Shown here: piece after piece, positions 2,052 through 16,554 of the stretch
Layout: each line of letters begins with the position of its first letter
How positions within the stretch are numbered: the first letter of the stretch is position 1
NCBI RefSeq assembly: GCF_003044035.1
Contig: NZ_NVQC01000013.1
Location: 30,001-62,000 of the forward strand
From: Candidatus Methylomirabilis limnetica
GTDB taxonomy: Bacteria; Methylomirabilota; Methylomirabilia; Methylomirabilales; Methylomirabilaceae
Direction: 5' to 3'
Length of the DNA stretch: 32,000 nucleotides
Notes under the pieces: generated by a model
Told to the model about the DNA's origin: nothing
Database searches by the model: none
Seen by the model: the letters and a program-made list of their open reading frames with translations, nothing else
Translations under genes and position numbers: made by a program

Positions 2052-2337
2052 ATATGTTCATCCTCTCCTTGAGAACCTTGCGGCGGAAATAGGGATTTCT
2101 GAGACCGCTGACCGTGAGTAGGTCAATCTTGCACCCCAAGGTATCTTCGAGATAATGGAGCAGTCCGAAGAATCTCTTGGATGGGTGCAGATGGGGCTCC
2201 TCGAACTCAACGAGGAGGTCAACATCGCTTCCAGCAGTTCCCTCGCCGCGCGTGAGCGACCCGAAAAGGTCTAGCCTCTTTACTTTGAATTCCCTGCAAG
2301 CCGGCACTGCAACACTCTTAATGTCTTGCAAAGTCAT
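2041..2337 (-). CDS. minimal nucleotidyltransferase (MNT, antitoxin-type)
   Basis: LDLFGSLTRGEGTAGSDVDLLVEF signature. I prefer the ATG at 2337 (GGAGG 8 nt upstream) over the track start at 2439. The stop overlaps the start of the next ORF. Confidence 0.8.
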   Translation of the reverse strand: MTLQDIKSVAVPACREFKVKRLDLFGSLTRGEGTAGSDVDLLVEFEEPHLHPSKRFFGLLHYLEDTLGCKIDLLTVSGLRNPYFRRKVLKERMNIYGG

Positions 2338-2815
2338 CAATGCATCCTCCGAATCGACCCAGGCGCCCTGTAATCTAACTGTGTGGGCCGCTTTAGAGAC
2401 CGATACAGGCCAACGGCCTATCTTCAAAGGCGGCACCACTATTCACCGGCGAATTTGTTCGCAATATCGCACTCTTACCCCAACCGGTCAAGACTCTTCT
2501 GGCCGACAATCGCTGGTGGCTTCGGTGGAACGTCACGATATGCGGCATAACGCCCCGCATGAGGCGCGCGTCAGCGCGTCGCTCTCGATGCGCTCTATGC
2601 GATGTTATCAGAAAATGGGGTCTGACCCCAAATGCCTGTTCCGTTTCTCGTGAATCCCACAAAAGAGACTTGCGAATCGTGCGAAGGGACGTTACCCTAA
2701 AACAGCGATAGGGATGAATGAAAAACCTTGTGGGCCGCTCTGGGAGCGGATATAAAGGGGGTGAGCAATCACATTCCCTTTAACCCACAAGGTGAGGCCA
2801 TGGTACGACAAACGG

Positions 2816-2968
2816 ATGCTGCCCTTCAAGCTCGAACGAACAGACGAGACGCTGACCGCCCATGGTGGCCTCGCCCTGATCGCGGAGTTCACTCACGGCC
2901 TCGGGCTGCGGGCGCTCGTGGCATGGCACCTGCCGCACCCAGGGAGCGAGAGGATGGGCAACGCATGA
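2816..2968 (+). pseudogene. N-terminal stub (50 codons) of a DDE transposase (IS1380/IS4-like)
   Basis: ATG 2816 to TGA 2966-2968 reads MLPFKLERTDETLTAHGGLALIAEFTHGLGLRALVAWHLPHPGSERMGNA. The pattern (T-x-x-GGL-x-L-x-x-F ... LP-x-PGS) is as I recall it from the N-termini of IS1380-type transposases. No transposase body follows. Confidence 0.45.
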
Positions 2969-3153
2969 CATAATAAGGGGAGGAGTCTGTCTCAGAGCAT
3001 GGCATGCTGACTCCAGGAGGCTGCGTGGCAGGTGACCCCCTGCCAAGTGCCTCGCATATGGCGAGTCATGCCGGTCACCTGGTCGTAAAACGGCGGTGAT
3101 TGGCGTGCAGCGGTATTTCAGCAATGGCGATCTCTAGTTTTTGGGAACTCACG

Positions 3154-3845
3154 TGAACTTGCCTGCTGCCAATGAATGTGGTACGGTTATTGCCGTTGTG
3201 GGCGGTTATACGCTGCTGCTACCACGAATCAAATGGGCAGCGCTAGGGTAGCCTATGCGGCGTTACTCGATTTTTAGCTGAGACGGGTTGTAGTGGTCCT
3301 GTTCAGCTTTGAAGGAGTCCGGCGGATCAAGATGAAGGACGGTGGCGAGCATGACCCTCAAAGCGAGCCGGGGGTGCAGTGAACATGTCCGTAACAGAGT
3401 CATTGAAAGAGATCAGCGCCCGCTACAACCTTGGGGCGGTGTATGCCTTCGGTAGCCGAGCGACTGAAGTCGCCAGCCGGGTGTGCGGTGAAGCGACATC
3501 GCCGCAGTTGCCTGAGTCGGATGTAGACATCGGGGTGCAGCCTCTCCCTGGCCCCCGCCTGACGGCACAGGAGCGGGTCCGGCTCTCTATCGAGTTGGAG
3601 GATCTGCTGGGGGCGACCCGCGTGGATCTGGTGGTGCTGTCGGAAGCCGATCCGTTTCTCGCGTTAGAGGTCATTCGGGGGGAGCTCCTGTGCTGCACCG
3701 ACGCCGACGCCCAGGCAGAGGATGAGCTCTACGTCTTGCGGCGTGCTGGGGACCTGGCGCCATACGCCCGTGAGCGTTGGCAGTTGATCCTCTCGGGTGA
3801 GACAAGATGACTCCTGGGCAGTTGCACGCCAAGATCGTGGCGGAG
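3154..3845. repeat. segmental duplication, copy 1 (partner 13575-14268)
   Basis: Collinear by eye with 13575-14268 (offset 10421-10423). The copy contains a junction motif, a degenerate NTase 5' fragment, the MNT gene and the first 13 codons of a DUF86 gene. Confidence 0.9.
3379..3810 (+). CDS. minimal nucleotidyltransferase (MNT), now without a functional HEPN partner
   Basis: VYAFGSRATEV...PESDVDIGVQ signature. GTG 3379 or ATG 3385 start. 12 differences in 143 aa versus the ORF at 13802-14233. Confidence 0.85.
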   Translation: MNMSVTESLKEISARYNLGAVYAFGSRATEVASRVCGEATSPQLPESDVDIGVQPLPGPRLTAQERVRLSIELEDLLGATRVDLVVLSEADPFLALEVIRGELLCCTDADAQAEDELYVLRRAGDLAPYARERWQLILSGETR

Positions 3846-3854
3846 GATGAGTAG
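3807..3854 (+). pseudogene. 15-codon stub of the cognate DUF86/HEPN gene
   Basis: ATGA-coupled MTPGQLHAKIVAEDE*. It matches the first 13 codons of the ORF at 14230, then the homology breaks at 3846. Confidence 0.6.
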
Positions 3855-3860
3855 AGAGCT

Positions 3861-4739
3861 ATGCGCATTGGCGTAAACCCGCTCCCGCTGGTCTCGATCA
3901 TCACCCCTTCTCTCAACCAGGGACGGTTCATCCGGGATACCATCGAGAGCGTTCTCTCGCAGGACTATCCCAGGATGGAATACCTCGTCATGGACGGGGG
4001 CTCCACGGACGAGACCCTGGACATACTGCGGAGCTATGGGGACCGGATCACGTGGAGGTCGGGCCCTGATGGAGGTCAGGCCGCTGCAGTCAACTCTGGC
4101 GTTCACCTCGCCACAGGCGAGATTCTCGGATGGCTGAACTCCGACGACACGTACCAGCCTGGTGCCGTGACGGCAGCGGTTGAGCATCTCATCGCTCACC
4201 CGGAGACAGCCGTCGTCTACGGAGACGCCCATTACATCGACGAGCAGAATAGAGTGATCGGGATCTATCCAACAGAGGATTTCGCTCTAGACCGATTGGC
4301 CCACGCCTGCCTCATCTGTCAGCCGGCCGCCTTCTTCCAGCGCACAGCGATCGAGGCGGTGGGGGCGCTCGATGCAAGTCTTCAGTACTGTATGGACTAC
4401 GACCTCTGGATCCGGTTGGGACGACTATTTCCACTGAAACGGATCCCTGGATTTCTGGCCAACTCACGACAGTACCCGCAGACGAAGACCTGGTCGCAGC
4501 GAGATCGGCTCTTCACAGAGCTCTGCGTGGTGACACAGCGCTACTTCGGATTTACCTCTCCCCACTGGCGGGTCTGGCACGCCTATGCGCGACTCAAGGG
4601 TGTCTCCTGGCCGATAGCGCGATCGGTGCTATATCCAGTCAAGGCAGTGTTGCCGGAACGCGCCTCCCGGTGGCTCAGAGTGACGCTTCCGTTAGTGATC
4701 AACCGGCTGATCCCCTGGAATCTTCGCGCTCGGAGGTAG
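3861..4739 (+). CDS. family 2 glycosyltransferase
   Basis: VSIITPSLNQGRFIRDTIESVLSQDYPRMEYLVMDGGSTDETLDIL...WLNSDDTY. Paralogous to the C-terminal domain of the ORF at 29735-31672. Confidence 0.9.
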   Translation: MRIGVNPLPLVSIITPSLNQGRFIRDTIESVLSQDYPRMEYLVMDGGSTDETLDILRSYGDRITWRSGPDGGQAAAVNSGVHLATGEILGWLNSDDTYQPGAVTAAVEHLIAHPETAVVYGDAHYIDEQNRVIGIYPTEDFALDRLAHACLICQPAAFFQRTAIEAVGALDASLQYCMDYDLWIRLGRLFPLKRIPGFLANSRQYPQTKTWSQRDRLFTELCVVTQRYFGFTSPHWRVWHAYARLKGVSWPIARSVLYPVKAVLPERASRWLRVTLPLVINRLIPWNLRARR

Positions 4740-4742
4740 GCG

Positions 4743-4805
4743 GTGAAGCGGGTCCTCATCACCGGGATGACCGGCCAGGATGGATCGTACCTGATCAATG
4801 CTTAG
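4743..4805 (+). pseudogene. gmd: GDP-mannose 4,6-dehydratase, 20-codon 5' stub
   Basis: VKRVLITGMTGQDGSYLINA* starts 4 nt after the GT2 stop. ITG-x-TGQDGSYL is the characteristic Gmd N-terminus. Confidence 0.7.
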
Positions 4806-4884
4806 CACAAAAGACAGGAGAATAAGGAGGTTGACGAGGGATGGGAATGACCGTGGCGGCCCGTCGCCGCATGGAACAGTCTAT

Positions 4885-5055
4885 GGCATTGAGTTCCTGA
4901 ATGCCAATGATCAACTGACCGAAGACCGGGGTGCTCTCGTCGTCGAGCTGGAACTCGTTAAAGACGAACGTGGCTTTTTTGCCAGAACCTAGTGCCAGCG
5001 AAAATGTGCAGCGCACGAACTTTATCCGCGATTGGTGCAGTGCAATATCTCATGA
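4885..5055 (+). pseudogene. RmlC-like (dTDP-4-dehydrorhamnose 3,5-epimerase family) 5' fragment with an internal stop
   Basis: GALVVELELVKDERGFFART*CQRKCAAHELYPRLVQCNIS*. The DERGFF...LVQCNIS pattern is typical of RmlC-type cupins. TAG at 4990-4992 occupies the position where these proteins usually have Trp. Homology ends at the junction motif at 5051. Confidence 0.55.
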
Positions 5056-5097
5056 GTGTGGTACGGTTTTTGGCGTAGCATAGAGGGAAGTACACTT

Positions 5098-5397
5098 ATG
5101 GACCGAAGACAGAGCTACCTTGAACGCGTTCACCAGATCGTACTGCAGCACCTGAAAGGTCAGCCGGTGCGGGTGTATCTTTTTGGGTCCTGGGTTCGAG
5201 GTGACGCTCAGCGCACTTCGGACATCGACATCGCCATCCTACCATTCGGACCGCTCCCGCCCGGGCTTTTAAGTCACCTACAGGAGGCGTTAGAGGAAAG
5301 TTATGTCCCATATCCGATCGAGATGGTGGACCTCTCCCAGACCGATGTAGCCTTTCGCCGGCGAGTCATCGAGGAAGGAATTCTGTGGAGCGATTAA
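5098..5397 (+). CDS. minimal nucleotidyltransferase (MNT)
   Basis: VRVYLFGSWVRGDAQRTSDIDIAILP signature. ATG 5098 preceded by GAGGGAAG. The track start at 5056 lies inside the junction motif. Confidence 0.85.
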   Translation: MDRRQSYLERVHQIVLQHLKGQPVRVYLFGSWVRGDAQRTSDIDIAILPFGPLPPGLLSHLQEALEESYVPYPIEMVDLSQTDVAFRRRVIEEGILWSD

Positions 5398-5780
5398 AGG
5401 AACGAATTGAGGTAGCGTTCAGAGCCCTGATCACACTGGAGCAAGTTCTGCAAGAAAGCGCTCCCAGAAAGGTTGTACGCGATGCGGCCATCCAACGCTT
5501 TGAATACACCGTGGAAGCAGCATGGAAGGCAGCTCAGCGTTACTTACAGGAGGTGGAGGGTTTGAGATCGGGGTCTCCCAAGGGTGTTGTTCGGGCCTGT
5601 TTTCAGGTAGGGCTTCTAAGCGAAGAAGAGAGTGAACTGGCCCTCCAGATCATGGATGATCGTAATTTGACAGTGCATACCTACAATGAGCCTTTAGCTG
5701 AGGCCCTGTTTGCCCGTTTGCCAGAGCATGCCCGTCTGATCCGGCAGTGGCTGGAACGGCTCGCAGCGCGTGTGCAATAG
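5385..5780 (+). CDS. HI0074-family nucleotidyltransferase substrate-binding (HEPN-fold) protein
   Basis: RDAAIQRFEYTVEAAWKAAQRYL...MDDRNLTVHTYNE (R-N-x3-H-x-Y). GTG start overlapping the MNT stop by 13 nt. Confidence 0.85.
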   Translation: MERLKERIEVAFRALITLEQVLQESAPRKVVRDAAIQRFEYTVEAAWKAAQRYLQEVEGLRSGSPKGVVRACFQVGLLSEEESELALQIMDDRNLTVHTYNEPLAEALFARLPEHARLIRQWLERLAARVQ

Positions 5781-5910
5781 ACTGCCGGGACATCACCATG
5801 CATCTGCTGATCGTCGCTGCCAAGGCCGCTATACGAGCGAGCCATGAGGAAGATCACGCCGCTGCAAGGCTTTCGTATCATCCCGTTAGGCGATTACCTG
5901 CCGAGGCTTA

Positions 5911-6043
5911 GGAGGCGTCAACAATTAACATTTACATCTACCAAAGCAACAAACCCCCTTCATCCCCCTTTCGAAAGGGGGAAAGAGGGGGTTTGTACAT
6001 TTTTCGGATCATGAATATGTATATGTTATTCTTTGACGATGCC
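5911..6043 (-). mobile_element. 133-bp MITE-like element, copy A, flanked by TTA direct repeats
   Basis: Its reverse complement matches 25915-26047 with about 6-7 mismatches by eye. Imperfect 21-bp terminal inverted repeat (16/21). Long internal GC hairpin. TTA at 5908-5910 and 6044-6046. Confidence 0.7.
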
Positions 6044-6074
6044 TTACTCGCACATTTGAGCGTATCCCGAGATC

Positions 6075-6332
6075 GTGGCGGTCTATCTCTCTGTGGAGGT
6101 GTTCCAGATTCTGTGGGAGGCCGGGATTCTACCGGAGGAGTGTGTCCTGGTCCTTACCGGTGTGGGCCGTTTTCGAAATATCTTAGCCCATGTGTATATC
6201 ACTATCGAACTGGATAAGGTGTATGAGAACCTCCAGAAAGCCCAGAACAGATCAGTGAATTTATGCGGCTCGTTCAGCACTTTGTTGAAGAACAGGGGTC
6301 GCAGCAAGATCTCGCGTAAACGACGCGCTTAA
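6075..6332 (+). pseudogene. DUF86/HepT-type HEPN gene, 3' fragment with frameshift
   Basis: WEAGILPEECVLVLTGVGRFRNILAHVYITIELDKVYENLQKA carries R-x4-H-x-Y. In-frame TGA at 6057-6059 removes the N-terminus. After about 6240 a +1 frame reads better (SPEQISEFMRLVQHFVEEQG). No NTase partner is adjacent. Confidence 0.65.
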
Positions 6333-6600
6333 AATGTTCGTCTCATGGCGATCCCCTGTGGGCATCCCTTCCGGATATGATCAGGGCCAAAGGGCAGAAG
6401 ACCAATGATAAAGTCAACGTAACTGCTCAGGTAGATAGACTGTAGTCTTTTAGACTGTAGGAACGAGCTAGGCGTTTGCCGAATGTGACGCGAATCAATG
6501 ATGGAGACCGAAAAGGTTCTGGGCGCCTTGATTCGGTCCATGCGCAACGACTAACAGCCTTCAGTCTACAGCCTAAACACCTGAGTAGTTACAAGTCAAA

Positions 6601-6945
6601 ATGACAACGATCATTGAGCAGAGACGGACGCAACTAAAAGAAGCTCTTGAAAAAGCGATCCAAGTCCTGAGGGAGGAATATCATCCCCTCCGGATTATTG
6701 TTTTTGGATCGCTGGCGACGGACAAGGTCGGTGAGACCAGCGATTTAGATCTTCTGATCGTGAAGGAAACCTCCTTGCCTTTTTACGAGCGACTTCGTGA
6801 GGTGGCTCTGCTCTGTCCCTTGAAGGTTGGAGCGGACATTTTGGTTTACACCCCTGCCGAAGTTGAGCAGGCATCCCGGGATAGCCAGTTTTTTAGAGAA
6901 GAAGTCTTGGGAAAGGGTCGGGAGGTTTATCGTGCGCCCGTATGA
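6601..6945 (+). CDS. minimal nucleotidyltransferase (MNT)
   Basis: LRIIVFGSLATDKVGETSDLDLLIVKE ... ADILVYTPAEVE. Confidence 0.85.
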   Translation: MTTIIEQRRTQLKEALEKAIQVLREEYHPLRIIVFGSLATDKVGETSDLDLLIVKETSLPFYERLREVALLCPLKVGADILVYTPAEVEQASRDSQFFREEVLGKGREVYRAPV

Positions 6946-7081
6946 GCGGTGGCTGAACCAGGCATGGGATGATCTTCAATTTGCTCGCCTTGGTCTGGAA
7001 CAGGGGTTTCATGCACAGGCATGTTTTCTTTCCCAGCAGGTCATCGAAAAATGTCTGAAAGGGTGCCTGAGGTCAACCTGA
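6932..7081 (+). pseudogene. classical HEPN-domain gene truncated after about 49 codons
   Basis: GTG 6932 (overlaps the MNT stop) gives VRPYERWLNQAWDDLQFARLGLEQGFHAQACFLSQQVIEKCLKGCLRST*. This is the first helix pair of a PF05168-type HEPN protein; the remainder is missing. Confidence 0.6.
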
Positions 7082-7086
7082 GTCAA

Positions 7087-7575
7087 ATGGATACCGCTGT
7101 TAAAGAATTAGAGAAGAGGCTTCTAGCCGAAATTAAAGCCCTGTACGGCAAGAGGCTTGTGTCAGTGGTTGTGTTCGGCTCGGCTGGACAGGGAACACAA
7201 AGGTGTGACTCAGACCTGGACGTGTTGGTTGGTGCCGATCGACTCCCAAGGGGAAGAATGAAGCGTGTCGAAGAGTTTTCAATCGTGGAGAACCGGATTG
7301 AGCCTTTCTTGAAATCTCTTCAACAAGCGGGAATTGCCACCGATCTCTCTCCCGTGATCAAAAGCCCTGAGGAGGCGGAGAAAGGGAGTCCGCTGTTCCT
7401 CGACATGGTGGAGGATGCCCGCATTCTTGTGGATCGAAACGGGTTTTTCAAGGCGGTTCTGAAACGTCTTCGATGCCGGTTGGAGAAACTGGGCGCGAGG
7501 AGAATCTGGATGGGAAACGCATGGTACTGGGACCTCAAGCCGGACTATAAGCCCGGAGAATGCTTCGAGTTATGA
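7087..7575 (+). CDS. nucleotidyltransferase-domain protein with C-terminal extension
   Basis: LVSVVVFGSAGQGTQRCDSDLDVLVGAD signature. ATG 7087 preferred (alternatives 7051 and 7021 lie inside the truncated HEPN ORF). Confidence 0.8.
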   Translation: MDTAVKELEKRLLAEIKALYGKRLVSVVVFGSAGQGTQRCDSDLDVLVGADRLPRGRMKRVEEFSIVENRIEPFLKSLQQAGIATDLSPVIKSPEEAEKGSPLFLDMVEDARILVDRNGFFKAVLKRLRCRLEKLGARRIWMGNAWYWDLKPDYKPGECFEL

Positions 7576-7922
7576 CGAACGAAGACCTGGCCCAAAGTTA
7601 TCTTCGAAAGTCCATGGTTCGGCTTGATGTCCTCGATCTGTTTTTCAAAAAGCAGGATTACTCCGATGTGATCCGAGAGGCGCAGAAGATTGTAGAATTG
7701 TGTCTTAAAGGGGTGCTCCGTTATGTTGGTATTGAACTGCCGAAATTTCATGACGTCGGATTCCTTCTGCTTGAACATCACTGGCGGTGTAAGGGAATCG
7801 CCCTCAGAGATATTAAAAAGATGGCCGATATTTCCAAGCGGTTGAGGAAAGAGAGGGAGCTGGTTTTCTACGGGGATATTGATTTCATCCCAACCGATCA
7901 ATCAGAGGTAAAGGCGAGGTGA
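7572..7922 (+). CDS. classical HEPN-domain protein
   Basis: ATGA overlap with the upstream stop. YSDVIREAQKIVELCLKGVLRYVGIELPKFHDVG ... RKERELVFYGD. Confidence 0.8.
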   Translation: MTNEDLAQSYLRKSMVRLDVLDLFFKKQDYSDVIREAQKIVELCLKGVLRYVGIELPKFHDVGFLLLEHHWRCKGIALRDIKKMADISKRLRKERELVFYGDIDFIPTDQSEVKAR

Positions 7923-8341
7923 GCTTGAGCACAATCTACACGCTCGATCACGACGAACGGTCACGCATCATGGATCAGTTCGTGTCCGAACTGGCATCAG
8001 AACCGGGGATGGCCTTTGCGTACCTCTATGGGTCGTTTGTGGATTCCGAGGCGTTCCGGGATGTGGATGTTGGGGTGTATATGCGTTCCATGGCGCCGGG
8101 CGAGATGACCACGCGCGCTATGGCGCTCGCCCAGTGCCTCAGTACGAAGGTGCGGCTTCCCGTGGATGTCCGCGTGCTGAACGCCGCCCCTATTCCATTC
8201 CTCTACCACGTTCTACGGGGACACCTTCTCTTGAGTCACGATGACGATCTCCTCACCGAGGTGATTGAGCGGACCGCTTGCCGCTATCTTGACATCGCCT
8301 CGCTATTGCGCTCGAGTGCGCGGGAGGCGTTTGCGGCATGA
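7919..8341 (+). CDS. mntA: MntA-type nucleotidyltransferase antitoxin
   Basis: GTGA overlap with the upstream stop. FAYLYGSFVDSEAFRDVDVGVYM ... VDVRVLNAAP. Followed by an ATGA-coupled DUF86 gene. Confidence 0.85.
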   Translation: MSLSTIYTLDHDERSRIMDQFVSELASEPGMAFAYLYGSFVDSEAFRDVDVGVYMRSMAPGEMTTRAMALAQCLSTKVRLPVDVRVLNAAPIPFLYHVLRGHLLLSHDDDLLTEVIERTACRYLDIASLLRSSAREAFAA

Positions 8342-8754
8342 CGCTGAACGCTGATCTCGTCCGGGCCCGCTGTGCCGAGATCGAGGAATCGGTGAGCCGT
8401 TTGGAGCGGTTCAAGACCCTCCCTCGTGACGCATTTCTGGGAGATCAGGACACCCTTGATCTGGCGTGCTACCGGCTCTTGGTGGCGATGGAGGCGGCAT
8501 TGGCCCTCTGCTACCACGTCTCGGCCAAACGCCTCCGAAAGGTCCCAGAGGACTATGCCCAATGTTTCGGGATACTGCAGGAGGCGGCTATCATTCCCTC
8601 AGAACTTGCCGCTCGCCTTCAGTGGATGGCAAGGTTTCGGAATCTGCTCGTGCACATGTACTGGAAGGTCGACTATGGGGTGGTCTACGACGTGATCCGG
8701 GATAATCTGGAGGATTTGCGCGCCCTTAGCGCGGCGGTTGCTCGTCTCATCTGA
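8338..8754 (+). CDS. hepT: HepT-type (DUF86) HEPN toxin; the only full-length DUF86 gene in the window
   Basis: MARFRNLLVHMYWKVDYGVVYDVI (R-x4-H-x-Y). 138 aa. ATGA overlap with mntA. Confidence 0.9.
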   Translation: MTLNADLVRARCAEIEESVSRLERFKTLPRDAFLGDQDTLDLACYRLLVAMEAALALCYHVSAKRLRKVPEDYAQCFGILQEAAIIPSELAARLQWMARFRNLLVHMYWKVDYGVVYDVIRDNLEDLRALSAAVARLI

Positions 8755-8786
8755 AACGATGAGGTGAAGGATCGGGCAAGGATGGA

Positions 8787-8880
8787 ATGTCCGCGAATCT
8801 CAACACAAGAATCCTGGTGACCGGTGGGGCAGGGTTTCTCGGCTCGTATGTCGTCGAGCGGCTCCGCGCCGGAGGATACA
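8787..8880 (+). pseudogene. SDR-family NAD-dependent sugar epimerase/reductase, 5' stub (fcl-like)
   Basis: [31 protein letters not shown] parallels [31 protein letters not shown] of the intact gene at 27192. Similarity is lost after about 30 codons. Confidence 0.6.
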
Positions 8881-9100
8881 CGGAGACCTTACAGAACGAT
8901 CGAGTGGCACCGACAGACCCAGGTGTGATCCCGGGCAAGGCGCCATGGACCGGAGGAGGCATGAGGGGTAGTGGTGCATCTGTTCCGGGGGTCCTCTCCG
9001 CGTTTGACAGTGCGGACACAGGCATATATCATCCACGCTCGATTCGCAGTGTGAGCGGTCAGGCCTGTGGTAGCGGAATCGGGCTCCCCGAGAGGAGCAG

Positions 9101-9180
9101 GTGGAGACAACAGACCGAATAGGCAGCGCCAAGGCCGCCTACGGGGCGGCGCGGGGGAGGCGGTGCGCATTGGTGCACGC
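9101..9180 (+). pseudogene. deletion remnant: NTase 5' end joined to HEPN 3' end
   Basis: 9101-9152 matches the first ~50 nt of the NTase gene at 14759 (GGAGACAAC-GACCGAAT...GCCTACG-GGCG). 9150-9170 matches GCGGGGGAGGCGGTGCGC at 15441-15458 near the 3' end of the HEPN gene. Confidence 0.55.
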
Positions 9181-9249
9181 TGGGCGGGAGCGCTCCCGCC
9201 AGTTTTCCTGGGAGCGTACGGTGGAATCGCATCAGAAGAGCGGTAAGGA

Positions 9250-9567
9250 ATGGATGTAGGAACCATACACCGATTAGTTGCCGAGGGAAGGTATGAGTTT
9301 TCAAAGCATGCCGAGAGGGAACGAGAGGCCGATATGATCTCTACCACCGAGCTGGAAGAGGCTCTGAAGCGTTGCGACATCATCGAGAATTATCCGGATG
9401 ACCCTCGATGGCCGAGCTGTCTGGTTCTCGGATTTTCAGGTCAAAGACCTATCCATGCTGTGTGTAGCGTGAAACGAGATCCTGAGGAGCTTTTCCTCAT
9501 CACGGTGTATGATCCTTCCAAGCGGCCAGAGCACTGGATGGACCGTTACAAGCGGAGAAGGAGGTGA
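9250..9567 (+). CDS. DUF4258-domain protein (putative toxin)
   Basis: YEFSKHAEREREADMISTTELEEALKRCDIIENYPDDPRWPSCLVLGFSGQRPIHAVCSV...LFLITVYDP matches the DUF4258 pattern as I recall it. Confidence 0.75.
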   Translation: MDVGTIHRLVAEGRYEFSKHAEREREADMISTTELEEALKRCDIIENYPDDPRWPSCLVLGFSGQRPIHAVCSVKRDPEELFLITVYDPSKRPEHWMDRYKRRRR

Positions 9568-9571
9568 TTCT

Positions 9572-9820
9572 GTGACCAGGGTGTATCATCGGTGCCACTT
9601 CTGTGGAGGGGAGGTGGTCGAGCAACGAGTGACCGTGGATTATCGCTGGGGGGACACGTTCTTGGTGGTCATTCGCCATGTGCCGGCTGGGGTCTGCCAG
9701 GTATGTGGGGAGCAGTATTTGAAGGCCGAAGTGGTCAAAGAGATGGAAAAGGTGGCCCATTCTCAAGAGGAGGCAAAAGAAGTCCTTCGAATCCCTGTCA
9801 GGGAGCTGAAAGTAGCTTAG
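9572..9820 (+). CDS. YgiT-type (MqsA N-terminal-like) zinc-finger protein, putative antitoxin
   Basis: GTG 9572 with GGAGAAGGAGG upstream. C-x2-C ... C-x2-C: HRCHFCGGEVVEQRVTVDY...VPAGVCQVCGEQYL. No HTH domain is appended. Confidence 0.75.
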   Translation: MTRVYHRCHFCGGEVVEQRVTVDYRWGDTFLVVIRHVPAGVCQVCGEQYLKAEVVKEMEKVAHSQEEAKEVLRIPVRELKVA

Positions 9821-9969
9821 GGTTCGATCCTACAGGCAAGGCGGTGAGGCTGGTCGAGATCATGGGGGATGACCATGTGAGCGAAGAATGGCTGGGAGAA
9901 TAAGCCTAGTTGGCGTCCTGACCCAGACCTACCAGTGGGTCGAGCGAATTTGCAAGGACGGAGCGCCGG

Positions 9970-10120
9970 ATGGAGACCATGGACCAGATAGGCAGCGCCA
10001 AGGCCACCTACGGGGCCTTGCGAGAGTCCTCGGGGAAGGAATTTTGTGGAGCTGAAGCAGTCTGGAAGGCAGCTCAGCGGTACTTGCAAGAGATGGAGGG
10101 GGTACGTGATCGCTAAAAGG
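9970..10120 (+). pseudogene. chimeric remnant: NTase 5' fragment + HI0074-type HEPN internal fragment
   Basis: 9970-10033 resembles the 5' end of the gene at 14759. 10046-10120 resembles 5510-5585 of the HI0074-type gene (AVWKAAQRYLQEMEG vs AAWKAAQRYLQEVEG), followed by a stop. Confidence 0.55.
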
Positions 10121-10161
10121 TGCCGCTCGATCCTACTTCCAGACCAAGAGGGTTCGCCGCA

Positions 10162-10583
10162 ATGATTCATAAGACTTCGCTCCCCAAAGATAGTGAGGAG
10201 CGGCTACGCTCCCTTGGCCCAGCGTTACAACAATGCTCTGGTGTCCTCTTCGCCTACCTGTTTGGCGGGGCGACGGTTTCACCCCTCAAGCCCCTGAGCG
10301 ATGTGGATGTGGCTGTTACCTTGATGACCCTGTCGATCTGGTCGAGGGGCGTCTGGAGGCCATCGGCGTAGTAACCACGCACCTGCATACCGACGAGGTA
10401 GACGTGGTAGTCCTCAATACGGCGCCGACGGCCTTGACGGGACGGATCCTTCAGACCCGACGGGTCATCTTCGACCGCGATCCGTTCCGCCGACACCTCT
10501 TCGAGTCACTTGCGCTCCGAGAGTTCTTCGACTTCCGCATCTTCGAACATCGCCTCCTGGCCAGGAGGCACGGCAATGGTTGA
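10162..10583 (+). pseudogene. MNT nucleotidyltransferase with a -1 frameshift
   Basis: Frame A gives VLFAYLFGGATVSPLKPLSDVDVAV. The sequence continues in frame B as YLDDPVDLVEGRLEAIGVVTTHLHTDEVDVVVLNTAP.... The junction at about 10317-10320 (GCT GT|T ACC) looks like a 1-nt loss, unless it is a sequencing error. Confidence 0.7.
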
Positions 10584-11294
10584 CAGGGACCTCCTCCTCC
10601 GGAAACTAGCGGATCTTGACCAGTATCTGGGCCAAGTATCAGAGTACCGGGACATCACCATCGACCAGTATCGAGGAGACTGGAAGACCCAGCGTATTGT
10701 CGAGCGGACTCTCCAAATGACCATCGAGCTGTGCGTGGACATTGCCAACCATATCATCGCCGACCGGGGACTCCGGGTCCCGGCAACCTATTCTGGGTTC
10801 TTCCGGCATTAGCGTGGGTACGAGGGAGCTCAATATCCCTTCTGGGGAAGAGGGTGGCTGTGTTCCTCCCCCTCGAGGGGGGAGGATGAAGGTGGGGGTG
10901 ATCGGAGGCTTTCGGAGCGTCACCCATAGCGTCTCTTGGGCTGTGTGGGCGTGTGCGTGTCACCCGCTGACATCGTGCATGGCATGCGCCCTCCCACCCG
11001 CGCCCTCCCCCCGGATCGAGTCCGGGGCAGGCTCTCGGTGGGGGGAGGGGATGCTGGAAGGCCCGGGTACCCACGGAACACCCGGAAGAACCCTATTCCG
11101 AGGCGTTTGACGTCCTGGGCGAGGCCGGACTCCTGGACGCAGCTCGGCGAGATGCCATGATCCGCATGAGCAAGTTCCGTAATGTGATCGTCCACGACTA
11201 TGTGCGGGTAGACCCCACGATTGTCGTGCAGATCCTGCGTGAGCATCTCGAAGACTTGACCCGGTTCAAGGTGGCCGCGCTGAAGTGGATATAG
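10576..11294 (+). pseudogene. DUF86/HepT-type HEPN gene split by a ~300-bp MITE
   Basis: The 5' part is MVDRDLLLRKLADLDQYLG...IADRGLRVPATYS. The 3' part (11094-11294) is YSEAFDVLGEAGLLDAARRDAMIRMSKFRNVIVHDYVRVD...KWI*. Removing 10794-11098 restores one 137-codon frame. Confidence 0.8.
10794..11093. mobile_element. MITE-like insertion with perfect 12-bp TIRs and a TATTC target duplication
   Basis: GGGTTCTTCCGG (10795-10806) and CCGGAAGAACCC (11082-11093) are exact reverse complements. TATTC occurs at 10789-10793 and 11094-11098. No credible ORF inside. Contains a CCTCCCCCTCGAGGGGGGAGG hairpin. Confidence 0.75.
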
Positions 11295-11440
11295 CGTGCG
11301 TACGACTACTCTGCCAGGAGGCATGGTAAGAGATGGAGATGAGCGTAGCGTCCCGACGTCGGTTGTTATTGGACATGGCCCGCAGGCGGGCGCAACCGGG
11401 AACCGGCAGCTCCAGACTCTTCCTGGAAGCTCGAACGGCT

Positions 11441-11953
11441 ATGACGTACTGGCCTGATCTTACGCCGACGCTCACCGGCATCCCATGGGCCGTGGTGGGG
11501 GCCGTTGCTACCCGAGCCTACATGCCTGAGCGCACCACTCAGGACCTGGACATCCTGGTGAATGTGTCGGATCAGGAAGAGGTGAGAGTACGCCTGCAAC
11601 GGGCCGGCTTTCTTCCGGTGCAAGAGCTTGCCATCGGGGGTATGACCTGGCGCTCCCCTATGGGGGCCATAGTAGATGTCATTGAGTCTCGGGCGGAGTG
11701 GGTGTCGGAAGCGCTCCAGTCGCTGAGACAGGACCGCCAGGGACTTCCCGTGCTTGACCTGCCGTATCTCGTCCTGATGAAGGTTGAGGCGGGACGCGCG
11801 CAGGATCTGGCGGATGCGGCACGCATGCTTGGGGCAGCATCGGAGGCTCGCCATCAGGAGACCTGTGAGCTCTTTCGCCGCTATCTACCCGACGCACAGG
11901 ACGACCTGGAGAGTCTTATCGCCTTGGGTCGCCTGGAGATGGGGAATGAGTAA
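11441..11953 (+). CDS. solitary nucleotidyltransferase-fold protein (DUF6036/AbiEii-like)
   Basis: WAVVGAVATRAYMPERTTQDLDILV and LPYLVLMKVEAGRAQDLADAARM resemble standalone NTase-fold proteins. ATG 11441 preferred over the Arg-rich extension from 11333. Confidence 0.5.
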   Translation: MTYWPDLTPTLTGIPWAVVGAVATRAYMPERTTQDLDILVNVSDQEEVRVRLQRAGFLPVQELAIGGMTWRSPMGAIVDVIESRAEWVSEALQSLRQDRQGLPVLDLPYLVLMKVEAGRAQDLADAARMLGAASEARHQETCELFRRYLPDAQDDLESLIALGRLEMGNE

Positions 11954-12010
11954 TGTTTTTAGAACGATCGGGTGGTATAGGAAGACTCAACCTTTGGCTG
12001 AGAGGCAATC

Positions 12011-12083
12011 TTATTACTCAGAGCATAAAATAGCTTGCCCCCCTTTAGCAAAGGGGGGTAAGGGGGGTTTTGAACGATCGGTA
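12011..12083. repeat. 73-bp dispersed repeat (second copy at 16343-16415)
   Basis: TTATTACTCAGAGCATAAAATAGCTTGCCCCCCTTTAGCAAAGGGGGGTAAGGGGGGTTTTGAACGATCGGTA is nearly identical at both sites. Confidence 0.85.
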
Positions 12084-12090
12084 CAAATCA

Positions 12091-12168
12091 CCTCTTTCCC
12101 CCTTTCGAAAGGGGGATGAAGGGGGTTTGTTGCTTTGGTAGATGTAAATGTTAATTGTTGACGCCTCC
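12091..12168 (+). mobile_element. 133-bp MITE family, partial copy B (right ~78 bp)
   Basis: Matches 25970-26047 almost exactly (CCTCTTTCCCCCTTTCGAAAGGGGGATGAAGGGGGTTTGTTGCTTTGGTAGATGTAAATGTTAATTGTTGACGCCTCC). The left third is missing. Confidence 0.75.
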
Positions 12169-12383
12169 TAAACGACGCATCACTGGCCTTTCGTTACCAC
12201 GCCATGACGGGACAACCTCCGCTTTCTTCTCTTCGCTCGCCGGTATCTCCGTGAGGTGCTGAGTGCGTGAGATCGACTTGGAGCGGCTCAGGGAACTGGC
12301 GGGGCAACTGCGAAGCGCGGTGCGGGAGCTTACGGCGACCAGTACCTGGCCGCCATCGGCCATCACGTGAAGGCTCATCTCTT

Positions 12384-12510
12384 TTGAATCCACTGGGGGT
12401 TCATTCCCCTCGGCGTGCCGCGAGTTCGTCATACCGGCGGACCCCGGATCAGAGTCCGGGGCAGGCGCCGGTATCCAGAGGGCCCGACTGGATTCCCCCG
12501 TATCAAGCGG
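12384..12510 (+). repeat. REP/MITE-like repeat family 2, copy 1
   Basis: TTGAATCCACTGGGGGTTCATTCC...GCCGCGAGTTCGTCATACCGGCGG...GGTATCCAGAGGGCCCGACTGGATTCC is shared with 16043-16228 and 26938-27095. It generates the recurrent artefactual ORF start MPRVRHTGG. Confidence 0.8.
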
Positions 12511-12583
12511 AACACCTGGGTTTTATTGATCGGGATAAATCTGGCGATACCAGAGTGCTTTCGCCGGGAGGCAGCATGTGCGC

Positions 12584-12612
12584 TTGACATTCACAGGCGT
12601 GACAGATAAAAT
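12584..12612 (+). promoter_or_regulatory. near-consensus sigma70 promoter for vapBC
   Basis: TTGACA (12584-12589), 17-nt spacer, TAAAAT (12607-12612). Lies at the edge of a conspicuously AT-rich 80-bp stretch just upstream of the ATG at 12664. Confidence 0.5.
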
Positions 12613-12663
12613 TCATTATGTATGTCAAATAGATAAAGTATCGACGAATAGGTAAATAATCTG

Positions 12664-12915
12664 ATGCTTATCATTAAAGTAGGACGTCGAGGACAGATTA
12701 CAGTCCCTAAAGCGATCCGCCGATGGCTCAACCTCCAGGAGGGCGATCGGCTGGCCTTCGTCCGTCGGGGCGACGAGGTCATTCTGCAGCCCCTCACCCG
12801 CACGTTGTTGGACCTGCGGGGAAGTGTCCCTGTATCAGGACCTCAGGATTTCGCCGCCATTCGCCAGCAGGTGATCGATCGCCACGCTCGCCAGGTCATC
12901 GAGAATGACGCCTGA
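12664..12915 (+). CDS. vapB: AbrB/MazE/SpoVT-family antitoxin
   Basis: MLIIKVGRRGQITVPKAIRRWLNLQEGDRLAFVRRGDEVILQP is a looped-hinge-helix (AbrB-type) motif. Overlaps the PIN gene by 11 nt. Confidence 0.85.
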   Translation: MLIIKVGRRGQITVPKAIRRWLNLQEGDRLAFVRRGDEVILQPLTRTLLDLRGSVPVSGPQDFAAIRQQVIDRHARQVIENDA

Positions 12916-13339
12916 GCGCCTCTTCGCCGACACCAATCTTTTTTTGCGCTACCTGACCAACGATGTGCCGGAACAGGCAGAGGCCGTCGAGCAGGTGCTC
13001 CGTCGTGCAGCGGCTGGAGAGCTGGTCCTCGTGACGAACACACTGGTCATGGCGGAGATTGTGTGGACACTGGAAACCTTCTACCAACTCCCGAGAAGTG
13101 ACATCAAAGACAAGGTATTGGCCATCCTGAACACCCCTGGGCTCGAGGTGGCGGATGGCGACCTGATGCTGCAAGCCATGACCTGGTATACGGAGAAGAA
13201 TGTGGGCTTCATCGATGCCTACAATGCGGCCTGGATGCGAGGCGTGGGGTTGATGATTGCCTGCACATTTGACCGAAAACACTTTTCCCGCCTCGAAGGG
13301 GTGACCGTGATGGTTCCGGGAGCCGATCCTCCCGGCTAA
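12905..13339 (+). CDS. vapC: PIN-domain ribonuclease toxin
   Basis: Acidic residues in the expected PIN positions: LFADTNLFL, VMAEIVW, GFIDAYNAAW, CTFDRKHF. Confidence 0.85.
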   Translation: MTPERLFADTNLFLRYLTNDVPEQAEAVEQVLRRAAAGELVLVTNTLVMAEIVWTLETFYQLPRSDIKDKVLAILNTPGLEVADGDLMLQAMTWYTEKNVGFIDAYNAAWMRGVGLMIACTFDRKHFSRLEGVTVMVPGADPPG

Positions 13340-13424
13340 CCTAACCTCCGCGCTCGACAGCGCGACGGATGATATTCGGGCCTCTCTTCGCCCCGAAAGT
13401 CCCCCTCGGCCGCCTGATCTGTAG

Positions 13425-13445
13425 GGGCGGGGTTTATCCCCGCCC
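13425..13445 (+). terminator. GC hairpin downstream of vapC (REP-like or terminator)
   Basis: GGGCGGGG-TTTAT-CCCCGCCC, an 8-bp perfect stem. No clear U-tract. Confidence 0.3.
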
Positions 13446-13508
13446 GGTAAGCAGGAGGGCGCACGAGGTATTGGTTGTATGAAGCTGACCGCAATGAGCG
13501 ACGTGTGA

Positions 13509-13552
13509 GACGACCTGGAGAGCCTCACCACCCTGGGCCGGTTAGAAATGGA
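13509..13552 (+). pseudogene. ghost copy of the 3' end of the 11441-11953 gene
   Basis: DDLESLTTLGRLEMD versus DDLESLIALGRLEMG. DNA similarity runs from GACGACCTGGAGAG onward. Confidence 0.5.
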
Positions 13553-13574
13553 CCGACCGCTGCTAACACGCAAA

Positions 13575-14268
13575 TGAACTTGCCTGCTGCCAATGAATGT
13601 GGTACGGTTCTTGCCATTGTATGAAGTTATACTCTGCTGCTCACATGGACTTAATAGGCAGCGCCAAGGCCGCCTACGCGGCGTTGCTGGAGTCCTTGAT
13701 GAAGTGGGTCGTAGTGGTCCTGTCTGGCCTTAAGGGGGTCAGGCTGATCAAGATGGAGTAACGGTGGCGACCATGACCATCAAGGCGAAACCTAGGGTGT
13801 AGTGAACATGTCCGTAACAGAGCCGTTAAAAGAGATCAGCGCGCGCTACAACCTTGGGGCGGTGTATGCCTTCGGCAGCCGAGCGACCGAAGTCGTCAGC
13901 CAGGTGTACGGTGAAGCGACATCACCGCAGTTTCCTGAGTCGGATGTAGACATCGGGGTACAGCCTCTCCCAGGTCACCGCCTGACGGCACAGGAGCGGG
14001 TCCGGTTCTCTATCGAGCTGGAGGACCTGCTCGGCGTCGGCCGTGTGGATCTCGTAGTGCTACCGGAGGCCGATCCGTTTCTTGCACTGGATGTCATTCG
14101 GGGGGAGCTCCTGTGTTGCGCCGACGCCGACGCCCAGGCGGAGGATGAACTCTACGTCTTGCGGCGAGCTGGGGACCTGGCGCCATACGCCCGTGAGCGT
14201 TGGCAGTTGATCCTCTCGGGTGAGACAAGATGACTCCTGGGCAGTTGCGCGCCAAGATCGTGGCGGAG
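13575..14268. repeat. segmental duplication, copy 2 (partner 3154-3845)
   Basis: See copy 1. The same order of junction motif, NTase 5' fragment, MNT gene and DUF86 start. Confidence 0.9.
13802..14233 (+). CDS. minimal nucleotidyltransferase (MNT)
   Basis: VYAFGSRATEV...PESDVDIGVQ. Paralog of the gene at 3379-3810. Confidence 0.85.
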   Translation: MNMSVTEPLKEISARYNLGAVYAFGSRATEVVSQVYGEATSPQFPESDVDIGVQPLPGHRLTAQERVRFSIELEDLLGVGRVDLVVLPEADPFLALDVIRGELLCCADADAQAEDELYVLRRAGDLAPYARERWQLILSGETR

Positions 14269-14475
14269 CGAGCGGCGTGGATCCGGCGGATGGTGGCCTC
14301 CCTCCGGGCTTTGCCTGGGGAGAGTTTCGAGACCTTTCAATCAGATTCCCGCAACATCGCTGCAGCCGAATCGTATCTGCGCCGGGCATTGGAGGCGCTT
14401 CACCTTCCCGATTCCAAAAGTGAGAGTGGTAGAATTCTAGTGGAGGAGGGATGTTATACTTGCCGAGTATATTGA
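14230..14475 (+). pseudogene. DUF86/HepT-type HEPN gene truncated before the catalytic motif
   Basis: ATGA-coupled MTPGQLRAKIVAERAAWIRRMVASLRALPGESFETFQSDSRNIAAAESYLRRALEAL is DUF86-like. From about 14400 the sequence is unrelated and there is no R-x4-H. Confidence 0.65.
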
Positions 14476-14482
14476 CAAGGCT

Positions 14483-14725
14483 ATGGAACAAGCCGTTTAT
14501 GAGATTATTGAGGACGAACGAACGTACTGGGGAGAGATTCCTGGTCTTCAAGGTGTGTGGGCGCGTCATGCTACGTTAGAGGGTTGCCGACGTGAACTCC
14601 GTGAGGCGCTGAGTGACTGGATGGCGTTGCGTTTGCGACTGGGCCTAGCGATTCCCGTTGTAGCAGGTATTGATCTGAATCAAATTACACAGCACTCGAT
14701 GTGCCGTGCGAGCCGTCAGGTCTGA
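14483..14725 (+). CDS. hicB: HicB-like (UPF0150) antitoxin domain protein, no intact HicA nearby
   Basis: YEIIEDERTYWGEIPGLQGVWARHATLEGCRRELREALSDWMALRLRLGLAIP matches the HicB N-terminal domain pattern. Confidence 0.65.
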   Translation: MEQAVYEIIEDERTYWGEIPGLQGVWARHATLEGCRRELREALSDWMALRLRLGLAIPVVAGIDLNQITQHSMCRASRQV

Positions 14726-14758
14726 GGTCGCGGAATCGAGTTCCCAGAAGAGCATCCG

Positions 14759-15118
14759 ATGGAGACAACGGACCGAATATACAGCGCCAGGGCTGCCTAC
14801 GCGGCGCTGCTAGAGTCCTCGCTGAAGCGGGTTGTAACGGTCCTGTCCGGCCTTGAAGGGATCAAGCGGATCAGCCTCGTGGGGTCCTATGCCCGGGGCC
14901 GGGCCGATCTGTTCACCGATCTCGACATCCTGGTGGTGATGGACACGGATCTCAGCTTTATCGACCGCCTTCGCATGTTGTACCCGCTCCTGGCCCTGCC
15001 CGTGGACCTGGACCTGCTGTGCTATACCCCTGGGGAGTTAGAGCGGATGCAGGACCGACCGTTCATAAAGCATTTGCGTCGAGAGGAGGTAGTCCTCTAT
15101 GAGACGAGCACCTCGTGA
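14759..15118 (+). CDS. nucleotidyltransferase-domain protein
   Basis: [25 protein letters not shown] ... [13 protein letters not shown]. Confidence 0.85.
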
Positions 15119-15530
15119 AGAGGGCGCCAGATGGCTGCAACAGGCCGTCGAGGATCTGCGGTGGGCCGAAGATCTGGCAGAGCGCGGCGGGTATCACATT
15201 GCCTGCTTCCTGGCCCAGCAGATCGGCGAAAAGGCCCTCAAGGGGTTCCTCTATGCGCAGGGCGAGGAGATAGTGATAGGTCATTCAGTCGAGCGGTTGT
15301 GCCGAGCGGCTGCCCGCTATGACCCAGCATTCGACCAACTGGTCGCGCGGTGGTCGATCTTGGATGGCTATTACATCCCGACTCGATATCCAAACAGCGT
15401 ACCCGACAGCATTCCGGCCCATATCTTCACTCGAGATGCCGCGGGGGAGGCGGTGCGCTTGGCGAGAGAGATCGTGACCTACGTCACCGATCGACTCGGT
15501 CGGATGGAGGGTGAAGGTGGTGGAGGATGA
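15099..15530 (+). CDS. classical HEPN-domain protein
   Basis: [41 protein letters not shown]...YYIPTRYPN. 20-nt overlap with the NTase gene. Confidence 0.85.
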
Positions 15531-15721
15531 ACCAAGACCTTGCTACCCAATCGGCTGGAGCAGATGGAGGTACGGTGGCGAGCACGACTCATACACGATG
15601 GGCTTCGTTAAGTGACCCTCTCTTCAAAGAGGGACTCTGTCTGACCCTTGGGTTGTGCGGGCAGCACCAAGCAATCGTGGGGACCGGTACTGCCCTCATT
15701 TCGTTCGCGAACCGCTGCCTG

Positions 15722-15819
15722 GTCATTGCGAGCGACCAACGGGAGCGTGGCCATCCAACCGTTCTGCCTTCCTGATCGTGAAGAACCGTGAGATTGCTTC
15801 GCCTTCGGCTCGCAATGAC
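15722..15819. repeat. REP-like inverted repeat (GTCATTGCGAGC ... GCTCGCAATGAC)
   Basis: 12-bp perfect arms at 15722-15733 and 15808-15819. The sequence type (CATTGCGAGCG...GCTCGCAATGAC) is a common bacterial REP/MITE motif. Confidence 0.6.
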
Positions 15820-15895
15820 GCGTAGAGTGGCCTTCGAGCCGGGGACACTCTCTCCAGTGGGCTTGAATTAGGACACTACCGTGGGGATCTCATCC

Positions 15896-16042
15896 ATGCG
15901 CATCGGCGTAAACACCCTCCCGCTCTTCCCCGGCCAGATCGGCGGGATGGAGACATACACGACTAATCTCTTGACGCACCTCACTGCAATCGACTGCCAA
16001 CATACCTACCACCTCTTTGTGGCCCACCATAACCGTGGTCTC
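15896..16042 (+). pseudogene. GT4-family glycosyltransferase, 49-codon 5' stub
   Basis: MRIGVNTLPLFPGQIGGMETYTTNLLTHLTAIDCQHTYHLFVAHHNRG is a typical GT4 N-terminus. The reading frame runs straight into repeat family 2 at 16043. Confidence 0.6.
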
Positions 16043-16228
16043 TTGAATCCACTGGGGGTTCATTCCCAGCGGCTTGCCGCGAGTTCGTCATACCGGCGGA
16101 GGCCGGTATCCAACAGGGCCCGACTGGATTCCCCCCCCGTATCAAGTACGGGGCAGGCGTGTCAAGCACGGAATGACGGGCCAGAACGGAAGACGATACC
16201 CTGCAGCTTGCTGCGGGGTCCTTCATTG
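16043..16228 (+). repeat. REP/MITE-like repeat family 2, copy 2
   Basis: Same modules as 12384-12510, plus GTCAAGCACGGAATGACGGGCCAGAAC ... CTGCAGCTTGCTGCGGGGTCCTTCAT, which is shared with 27028-27095. Confidence 0.8.
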
Positions 16229-16342: not shown

Positions 16343-16450
16343 TTATTACTCAGAGCATAAAATAGCTTACCCCCCTTTAGCAAAGGGGGGTAAGGGGGGT
16401 TTTGAACGGTCGGTAAAACCCCCTCAATCCCCCTTTCGTAAAGGGGGAAG
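16343..16450. repeat. 73-bp dispersed repeat copy 2 plus a degenerate GC-hairpin unit
   Basis: 16343-16415 matches 12011-12083. 16416-16450 (AAACCCCCTCAATCCCCCTTTCGTAAAGGGGGAAGTTGCTGG) resembles the hairpin core and right arm of the 133-bp MITE family. Confidence 0.8.
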
Positions 16451-16554
16451 TTGCTGGAGATGTTGTGCGAGAGTGCAATCTACTTTATGCTCCCCCGTAA
16501 TATCTGGCACTGATGAGTATTGTGAGACGGTTAATAGCAGAGAGAGGGGCGCAC

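Follow-up and report, generated by a model that had tools for sequence, protein, structure and literature searches.

A 187-bp miniature inverted-repeat transposable element (MITE) with the inverted terminal repeat (ITR) GGCTCTTCG and 8-nt direct repeats has been described in Microcystis aeruginosa PCC 7806 and attributed to ISL3 transposases (PMC11448079). The ends of this MITE match ISL3 elements, it often lies between toxin-antitoxin (TA) systems and has interrupted genes, it is present in more than 30 identical copies, and its movement has been observed in the laboratory (PMC11448079). Here, we describe a 297-bp non-coding insert which splits the toxin gene hepT of a type VII TA pair, mntA-hepT, in Candidatus Methylomirabilis limnetica. 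The insert lies at 10796-11092 on the plus strand of a 32,000-nt stretch of contig NZ_NVQC01000013.1 (positions 30,001 to 62,000), which is hereafter called the window and in whose own numbering all coordinates are given. Our results indicate that the insert is very probably a MITE with ends of the ISL3 clade, that its insertion into hepT left the toxin dead, and that the antitoxin gene mntA decayed later.

The Microcystis MITE resembles the window element in being short and non-coding, in having ITRs that begin GGCTCTTC(G/C), ISL3-type ends, 8-nt repeats and a stem-loop-rich interior, and in lying in or near TA loci and sometimes inside genes. However, the interiors of the two elements are unrelated, their lengths differ (187 versus 297 bp), their hosts belong to Cyanobacteria and NC10, respectively, and the window element has a longer shared motif in its terminal inverted repeats (TIRs), GGYTCTTCCGG-N7-GTGGGTAC. 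With the autonomous insertion sequences (IS) of the ISL3 family, such as the 1309-bp element of locus L053 and those listed under ISL3 in ISfinder, the window element has in common its TIRs, an 8-bp target-site duplication (TSD) and AT-rich targets; in contrast to them, it contains no transposase gene, and the terminal 26-31 bp alone are shared. Correia/NEMIS, RUP, MITEAba12 and the Tn3-derived TIMEs are likewise non-autonomous, bounded by TIRs, flanked by TSDs, rich in hairpins, present in multiple copies and mobilized in trans, but they differ from the window element in their parent families and in their TSDs, which are TA in Correia and RUP and 5 bp in TIMEs.

As to the interrupted genes, the described HepT/MntA systems of Shewanella oneidensis (SO_3166/SO_3165; structures 5yep and 6m6u) and Aphanizomenon flos-aquae (7ae8) have, like the window pair, an upstream MntA-type nucleotidyltransferase gene that overlaps the toxin gene by 8 nt, and the HepT protein rebuilt from the window matches the HepT model end to end, including the RX4HXY motif. 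In contrast to those systems, both genes of the window pair are pseudogenes, hepT being split by the MITE and mntA being frameshifted. In these systems, MntA is reported to neutralise HepT by AMPylating the Tyr of the RX4HXY motif (Yao et al. 2020; Songailiene et al. 2020).

The truncated hepT open reading frame (ORF) begins with the ATG at 10576 and terminates with the TAG at 10810-10812, where the initial annotation of this stretch had placed the stop of a DUF86 gene shortly after PATYS, and encodes a 78-aa product ending in PATYS followed by GFFRH. According to the ORF list, the 5' part of hepT proper comprises codons 1-73 and the first base of codon 74 (10576-10795, plus strand), the GFFRH being added by read-through, and residues 1-73 are identical to those of the intact homologue P0002. 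The remainder of HepT, including FRNVIVHDY, is encoded in another frame at 11094-11294; profile and structure alignments delimit the 3' part of the gene, from the last base of codon 71 to codon 137 and the stop, to 11093-11294 (plus strand). The insertion target, CTATTCCG, spans codons 71-74. In silico removal of 10794-11098, that is, of the element and one duplicate (305 nt), gave a 137-codon ORF. The rebuilt protein covered the whole NCBIfam profile HepT_toxin (NF047751; positions 1-120 of 120) without a break, scoring 132 bits against a cut-off of 60 (E = 9.5e-39). It also matched the Pfam family HepT-like (PF01934; E = 9.5e-33, 112.9 bits) and the HepT toxin structures of Shewanella, 6m6u and 5yep (E about 2e-16). 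Hence the proposal that excision of exactly this segment rejoins the frame was correct, and the continuity of the frame holds against full-length DUF86 homologues as well as against the solved HepT structures. The RX4HXY motif of the rebuilt protein, RNVIVHDY, occupies residues 100-107 (11178-11201) and aligns to RNIAVHDY of 5yep and 6m6u. Because this catalytic motif lies downstream of the insertion and is cut off from the N-terminal helices, the 78-aa product cannot act as an RNase, and the split gene yields no active RNase toxin.

The closest relatives of the gene represent empty sites. Many proteins of 137 aa are 94-97% identical to rebuilt HepT, intact Methylomirabilis HepT proteins being 96-97% identical to it; one of these relatives bears the name 'type VII toxin-antitoxin system HepT family RNase toxin [Candidatus Methylomirabilis sp.]', and almost all of the best 120 homologues listed are 137 aa long. 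In the DNA alignment, the seven closest intact loci read ...CCGGCAACCTATTCCGAGGCG... with a single copy of CTATTCCG, and intact hepT genes at 96-98% nucleotide identity read ...GGCAACCTATTCCGAGGCG..., with one target copy. Compared with these seven loci, the window has exactly 305 extra nucleotides at the target, and the excised hepT is identical to them at 397-405 of 414 nt. As expected from the insertion first proposed, homologous DUF86 genes therefore lack an equivalent insert, the seven closest loci being empty sites.

The element is bounded by imperfect 31-nt TIRs which start GGTTCTTCCGG. Inverted-repeat and pattern searches placed the left TIR, GGTTCTTCCGGCATTAGCGTGGGTACGAGGG, at 10796-10826 (plus strand) and the right TIR, whose reverse complement is GGTTCTTCCGGGTGTTCCGTGGGTACCCGGG, at 11062-11092 (minus strand), both carrying the motif common to ISL3 ends. 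The exact 12-nt inverted repeats that the initial annotation had reported, GGGTTCTTCCGG (10795-10806) and CCGGAAGAACCC (11082-11093), were recovered and found to extend to 32 nt with 78% complementarity (10795-10826 and 11062-11093), the outer 11-12 TIR bases being exact. For the 27-nt pattern spanning both element ends, 0.00 chance matches were expected from shuffles of the window, and the 32-kb window contains no third TIR copy or further copy of the element. The flanking TSD consists of CTATTCTG at 10788-10795 and CTATTCCG at 11093-11100, 8 bp long and matching at 7 of 8 positions; the right copy has the same letters as the empty sites, and the left copy differs from both by a C-to-T change at 10794. 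We assigned the element to 10796-11092 with an 8-bp TSD because its ends and TSD length are consistent across 29 other TIR pairs (see below). The direct repeat TATTC, extendable to CCTATTC, from which the initial annotation had started is the core of this duplication, but a TSD of 5 bp or 7 bp was ruled out by the boundaries from the 30 TIR pairs, which give 8 bp. Likewise, the earlier estimate of a MITE of about 300 bp was refined to 297 bp, with no change in the 305 nt whose excision rejoins the frame.

The insert was also thought to contain no credible ORF, and indeed none of the three longest ORFs inside it had a Pfam match at E<=0.1. Searching the insert against Rfam gave no family (the sole match had 15 bits, E 0.7), and no sigma-70 promoter-like or intrinsic terminator-like site was found inside the element. 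Its predicted fold consists of a long TIR stem and internal GC hairpins (minimum free energy -160.8 kcal/mol, z -3.6 versus shuffles). One such hairpin, TCCTCCCCC-TCGAG-GGGGGAGGA at 10864-10886, is kept in all family copies in the family alignment. A 23-nt extra hairpin unit (CCGGATCGAGTCCGGGGCAGGCT) at 11011-11033 sits in the loop of a MITE hairpin and has no counterpart in other family members. The GC hairpins had been suggested to be related to other repeats in the window; this is true of the 23-nt hairpin, which matches 12442-12466, but nothing else in the window is related to any other part of the element.

Further copies of the element were found, as anticipated, at unrelated sites including sites in Ca. 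Methylomirabilis sp. bin48. Genomes were scanned with a TIR pattern, one genome per species; the first pattern, GGGTTCTTCCGGNNNNNNCGTGGGTAC, included a G derived from the TSD and was thus biased to targets ending in G. Metagenomes were scanned with a slightly relaxed TIR pattern, which gave 69 loci, and pairing of forward and reverse TIR matches across all fetched loci yielded 30 pairs. In these pairs, the element ends always start GG[T/C]TCTTCCGG and finish CCGGAAGA[A/G]CC. The 8 flanking bases were identical at 8/8 positions in 13 of the 30 pairs (11 distinct insertions) and at 7/8 in another 6, the chance probability of one perfect 8/8 duplication being about 1.5e-5. Perfect TSDs are about 70% A+T, which suggests that AT-rich targets are preferred. 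Public genomes and metagenomes contain, at unrelated sites, 25 or more additional short elements bounded by the same ends. About ten full-length family copies in other contigs are 69-88% identical to the window element (76-88% in the comparison over the full length: L043, 88%; L074 and L044, 87%; L071, 86%; L037 and L026, 83%; L058, 80%; L003, 78%), and a 151-nt partial copy (L011) is 93% identical. The family copies occupy unrelated sites, both in Methylomirabilis-like contigs and in others, and also occur in intergenic DNA, in either orientation; more distant subfamilies carry the same TIRs. In the genome scan, bin48 contained the full-length relative L003 and the shorter, internally deleted L005, and another metagenome-assembled genome contained L002, L004 and L006, which have the same ends and a different interior. 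L001 was discarded as a chance match inside a coding region. In addition, a 43-nt stretch at 3382-3423 of L078 (also in L079 and L080) is 91% identical to MITE positions 68-108 (window 10863-10903) and stands alone, without TIRs, in intergenic DNA of a Methylomirabilis contig, so the hairpin module also exists outside the MITE.

The initial annotation had pointed to a possible autonomous IS with the same TIRs, and such elements were identified, with ISL3 transposases encoded in L053 and L032. Six TIR pairs are 1309-1372 bp apart. The 1309-bp element of L053 has an 8/8 TSD, and its 406-aa product combines the domains Zn_ribbon_ISL3, HTH_Tnp_ISL3 and DDE_Tnp_ISL3 (E 7e-70); L032 (TSD 8/8) and L075 have the ISL3 DDE domain too. 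By tblastn with the L053 protein, ISL3 transposase sequence was found to adjoin the TIR in 17 fetched loci. The end motif GGYTCTTCCGG-N7-GTGGGTAC is common to the window MITE, L053, L032, L075, L007 and L060, and the IS end in L073 matches the left TIR of the window at 25 of 26 positions; this last IS is degenerate, with several frameshifts, and was left out as a query. Moreover, the 8-bp TSD is alike in the MITEs and the autonomous IS. At the level of sequence, what can be regarded as demonstrated is the sharing of ends and of duplication length with ISL3 elements, rather than derivation from them by internal deletion.

The upstream gene, mntA (10162-10583, plus strand), is a pseudogene of an MNT-type nucleotidyltransferase antitoxin, two frames of which match the NCBIfam profile MntA_antitoxin at positions 2-36 and 35-103. 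The 1-nt frameshift previously suspected in this partner gene was located by homologue alignment: one G has been lost between 10316 and 10317, right after the DVDVAV active-site stretch, where the window has GCTGT-TACCTT against GCCGTGTACCTT in homologues. Intact homologous MntA is 140 aa long. With its TGA at 10581-10583, mntA reaches 8 nt into hepT, which starts at 10576, and the same overlap is found in the homologues.

Three proteins of the window are identical to Ca. Methylomirabilis limnetica proteins encoded on a 153-kb contig (WP_107561416.1, WP_107561417.1 and WP_107561414.1). Independent assemblies of the locus were retrieved by the exact truncated 78-aa product and the downstream 206-aa ORF; a literature search by run accession gave no result. 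L087 (ENA ERZ4201065) is 100% identical to window 7576-13812; L087, L089, L090, L076 and L077, which come from separate assemblies or runs, are 100% identical across the junctions, and Logan contigs of SRR6684602, SRR6684603 and ERR3856788 match the window at 100% identity. In two Logan contigs, one end falls exactly 30 nt within the element (10825 and 11063), which is the behavior of a k=31 graph at a repeat edge and therefore agrees with the boundaries 10796 and 11092. Because identical junctions occur in independent assemblies, the insertion is no assembly artefact.

Two diverged relatives, L091 (JGI 3300036986) and L088 (ERZ27287891), are 98.8% identical to the window and have the MITE at the same site, and the T at 10794 in the left TSD copy is common to all three. 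L091 retains the G after 10316, giving an intact mntA of 140 aa, and L088 shares the mntA deletion with the window. Since L091 has the MITE yet an intact mntA, the MITE inserted first and the mntA frameshift arose later. The protein sequence hardly varies among the seven intact homologues, compared with which the window hepT has 4 derived amino-acid and 3 synonymous changes. F126L and A131V are common to the window and L091; V92A and A108V, the latter adjoining the catalytic Tyr, are absent from L091, and L088 has the bases of the window at both sites. These changes are suggestive of relaxed constraint on the split hepT. The insertion had been called recent, which did not hold: it is not very recent because it was inherited by lineages 1.2% apart, and one duplicate has mutated and four amino-acid changes have accumulated since.

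The TIRs, the TSD, the family copies and the empty sites bear out the initial view that insertion of a non-autonomous transposon inactivated the toxin gene. From the window alone, a 5-bp TATTC repeat can be drawn, and Tn3-family ends start G-rich as the window TIR does, so the element might be a MITE of another transposon family, such as a Tn3-derived TIME or one related to an IS with a 5-bp TSD, with a merely coincidental likeness to ISL3. We consider this highly unlikely: the TSD is 8 bp across the 30 pairs, 13 of them perfect, the same ends flank DDE_Tnp_ISL3 genes in 17 loci, and none of the copies was seen to have a Tn3-type transposase or resolvase as a neighbour. The element could also be a reversible switch that is precisely excised at a useful rate and so turns HepT on and off. 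Removal of the element and one duplicate does give an uninterrupted 137-codon HepT, and an arrangement of inverted repeats between direct repeats is conducive to rare precise excision, as in Tn5 and Tn10. However, this explanation is hardly probable either, because the TSD copies now differ (7/8), the frameshifted antitoxin of this lineage would make a revertant toxic, the split gene gains amino-acid changes, one of them beside the catalytic Tyr (A108V), and no intact HepT of the L126/V131 haplotype, as an excised allele would encode, was found among the closest intact database proteins read. Precise loss of the element and one duplicate would restore the frame, and there is no sign of its occurrence. 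In the window lineage, such excision would now presumably be counter-selected, as the restored toxin would lack its cognate antitoxin, except if cross-protection came from any of the many paralogous MntA proteins encoded nearby.

The genome is metagenome-derived and short-read contigs break at the element, which is a repeat, so a metagenome assembler could have misplaced it in hepT; but both junctions are 100% identical in ERZ4201065, SRR6684602 and SRR6684603 and the right junction in ERR3856788, the junctions are also present in the diverged relatives ERZ27287891 and JGI 3300036986, and the duplication of precisely the 8 bp found at the empty sites is a signature of transposition and not of misassembly. 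An artefact, with only a minute probability left to it, is effectively refuted already. Least probable of all, to the point of being negligible, is an intervening sequence acting at the RNA level, such as a self-splicing intron, within a gene that still functions. The stable fold (z -3.6) and the in-frame removal would suit it, but the Rfam search recovered no family (15 bits, E 0.7), the 305-nt removal includes one copy of the direct repeat, which is the geometry of a DNA transposon, and copies of the element occur in intergenic DNA in either orientation.

Several observations weigh against the interpretation of the insert as an ISL3-type MITE in a decaying TA pair. The empty sites lie in TA cassettes with differing downstream flanks and are related sites, not a strict allele. 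No ISL3 transposase was detected in the 32-kb window by tblastn with the L053 protein, and among the best 120 relatives of that protein, those with a name come from Nitrospira, Nitrospiraceae and Eremiobacterota, with no Methylomirabilis among them, a result that says nothing about the source genome. In its interior, the MITE does not resemble the autonomous elements, the terminal 26-31 bp alone being in common. L003 and L005 have no recognisable TSD, which may have resulted from recombination between copies. Finally, the argument for relaxed selection compares 4 non-synonymous with 3 synonymous changes, a small sample.

The extra hairpin of the window MITE belongs to a 23-26-nt unit, CCCCGGATC(A)GAGTCCGGGGCAGGC. 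Sites of this unit (CCCCGGATCNGAGTCCGGGGCAGGC-like) are 11011-11033, 12442-12466 and 16133-16158 in the window and 151-228 on the minus strand of L003. The unit at 12442-12466 is near-identical to that at 11011-11033 and lies in one copy of an unrelated repeat of about 150 nt, in single copies of which the unit is also either present or absent, in or next to an existing hairpin loop. The variant at 16133-16158 has compensatory stem changes, from GGA/TCC to GTA/TAC. That the unit is a very small, previously undescribed mobile or templated module in NC10 which targets hairpin loops is a speculative and rather improbable idea. In L088, the right third of the MITE (window 10986-11092) lacks 11011-11033, has about 10 clustered substitutions and resembles the canonical family. 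We rejected this as a sign of hairpin mobility, given the clustered substitutions and the mntA frameshift that L088, and not L091, shares with the window; gene conversion with another copy as donor, or a chimera in the metagenome assembly, is more likely than movement of the hairpin.

Other repeats surround the locus. A second non-coding repeat of about 120-180 nt with several GC hairpins is intergenic at 12381-12500, 16040-16218 and 26935-27086 and occurs close to MITE copies in L003 and L043 as well; Rfam gave no match to this family at the gathering threshold. A third repeat (519-612, 5907-6061, 12011-12171, 16343-16461 and 25897-26051) contains nested palindromes, CAAACCCCC..CCCCCTTTCGAAAGGGGG..GGGGGTTTG, in eight hairpin units whose flanks, up to 155 nt long, recur in both orientations with 92-98% identity, and is either REP-like or part of another MITE. 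The 60-190-nt repeats between cassettes (3223-3283, 9109-9169, 9978-10038, 13644-13704 and 14767-14827) are 5' fragments of MNT genes (METTDRI.../METMDQI...), and their reading as integron attC sites was dropped on this ground. Only the copy at 14759-15118 heads an MNT-sized ORF (119 aa, putative by size), and these fragments look like remnants of recombination between TA cassettes.

At a larger scale, window 1300-16000 is a polysaccharide/glycosyltransferase cluster (GT2, GT4, epimerases, GDP-fucose synthase and APS kinase) which is broken by an unusually dense, co-oriented TA array containing MNT/HEPN, DUF4258, PIN/MazE-type and other cassettes. Related Methylomirabilis contigs (L078 and L084) have the same TA cassettes in a different order. 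A tRNA gene lies near the left end of the window at 414-487 (Rfam RF00005, 70.8 bits).

For the MITE in hepT, the following course of events is proposed. An ISL3 DDE transposase supplied in trans would have recognised the TIRs of roughly 26-31 bp (GGYTCTTCCGG-N7-GTGGGTAC) and inserted the element into the 8-bp target in hepT codons 71-74, with duplication of the target. The insertion truncates HepT after residue 73, with GFFRH appended. Once the toxin was gone, the MntA antitoxin would have become unneeded; comparison of the lineages suggests that the 1-nt deletion in mntA came later and that the split hepT then gathered amino-acid changes. The module would represent a decaying type VII TA pair in Ca. 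Methylomirabilis limnetica. Both ISL3-mobilised MITEs and the inactivation of toxin genes by insertion elements are already known, and no new mechanism is involved. Our analysis defines an ISL3-type MITE family in Methylomirabilis (NC10), with boundaries at single-base precision, an 8-bp TSD and a TIR motif. This definition aids the annotation of metagenome-derived genomes, in which such a locus would otherwise be called as three small unrelated ORFs. Moreover, three related lineages give the order in which a TA module dies: the toxin by a MITE, the antitoxin by a frameshift, and then drift of the split gene.

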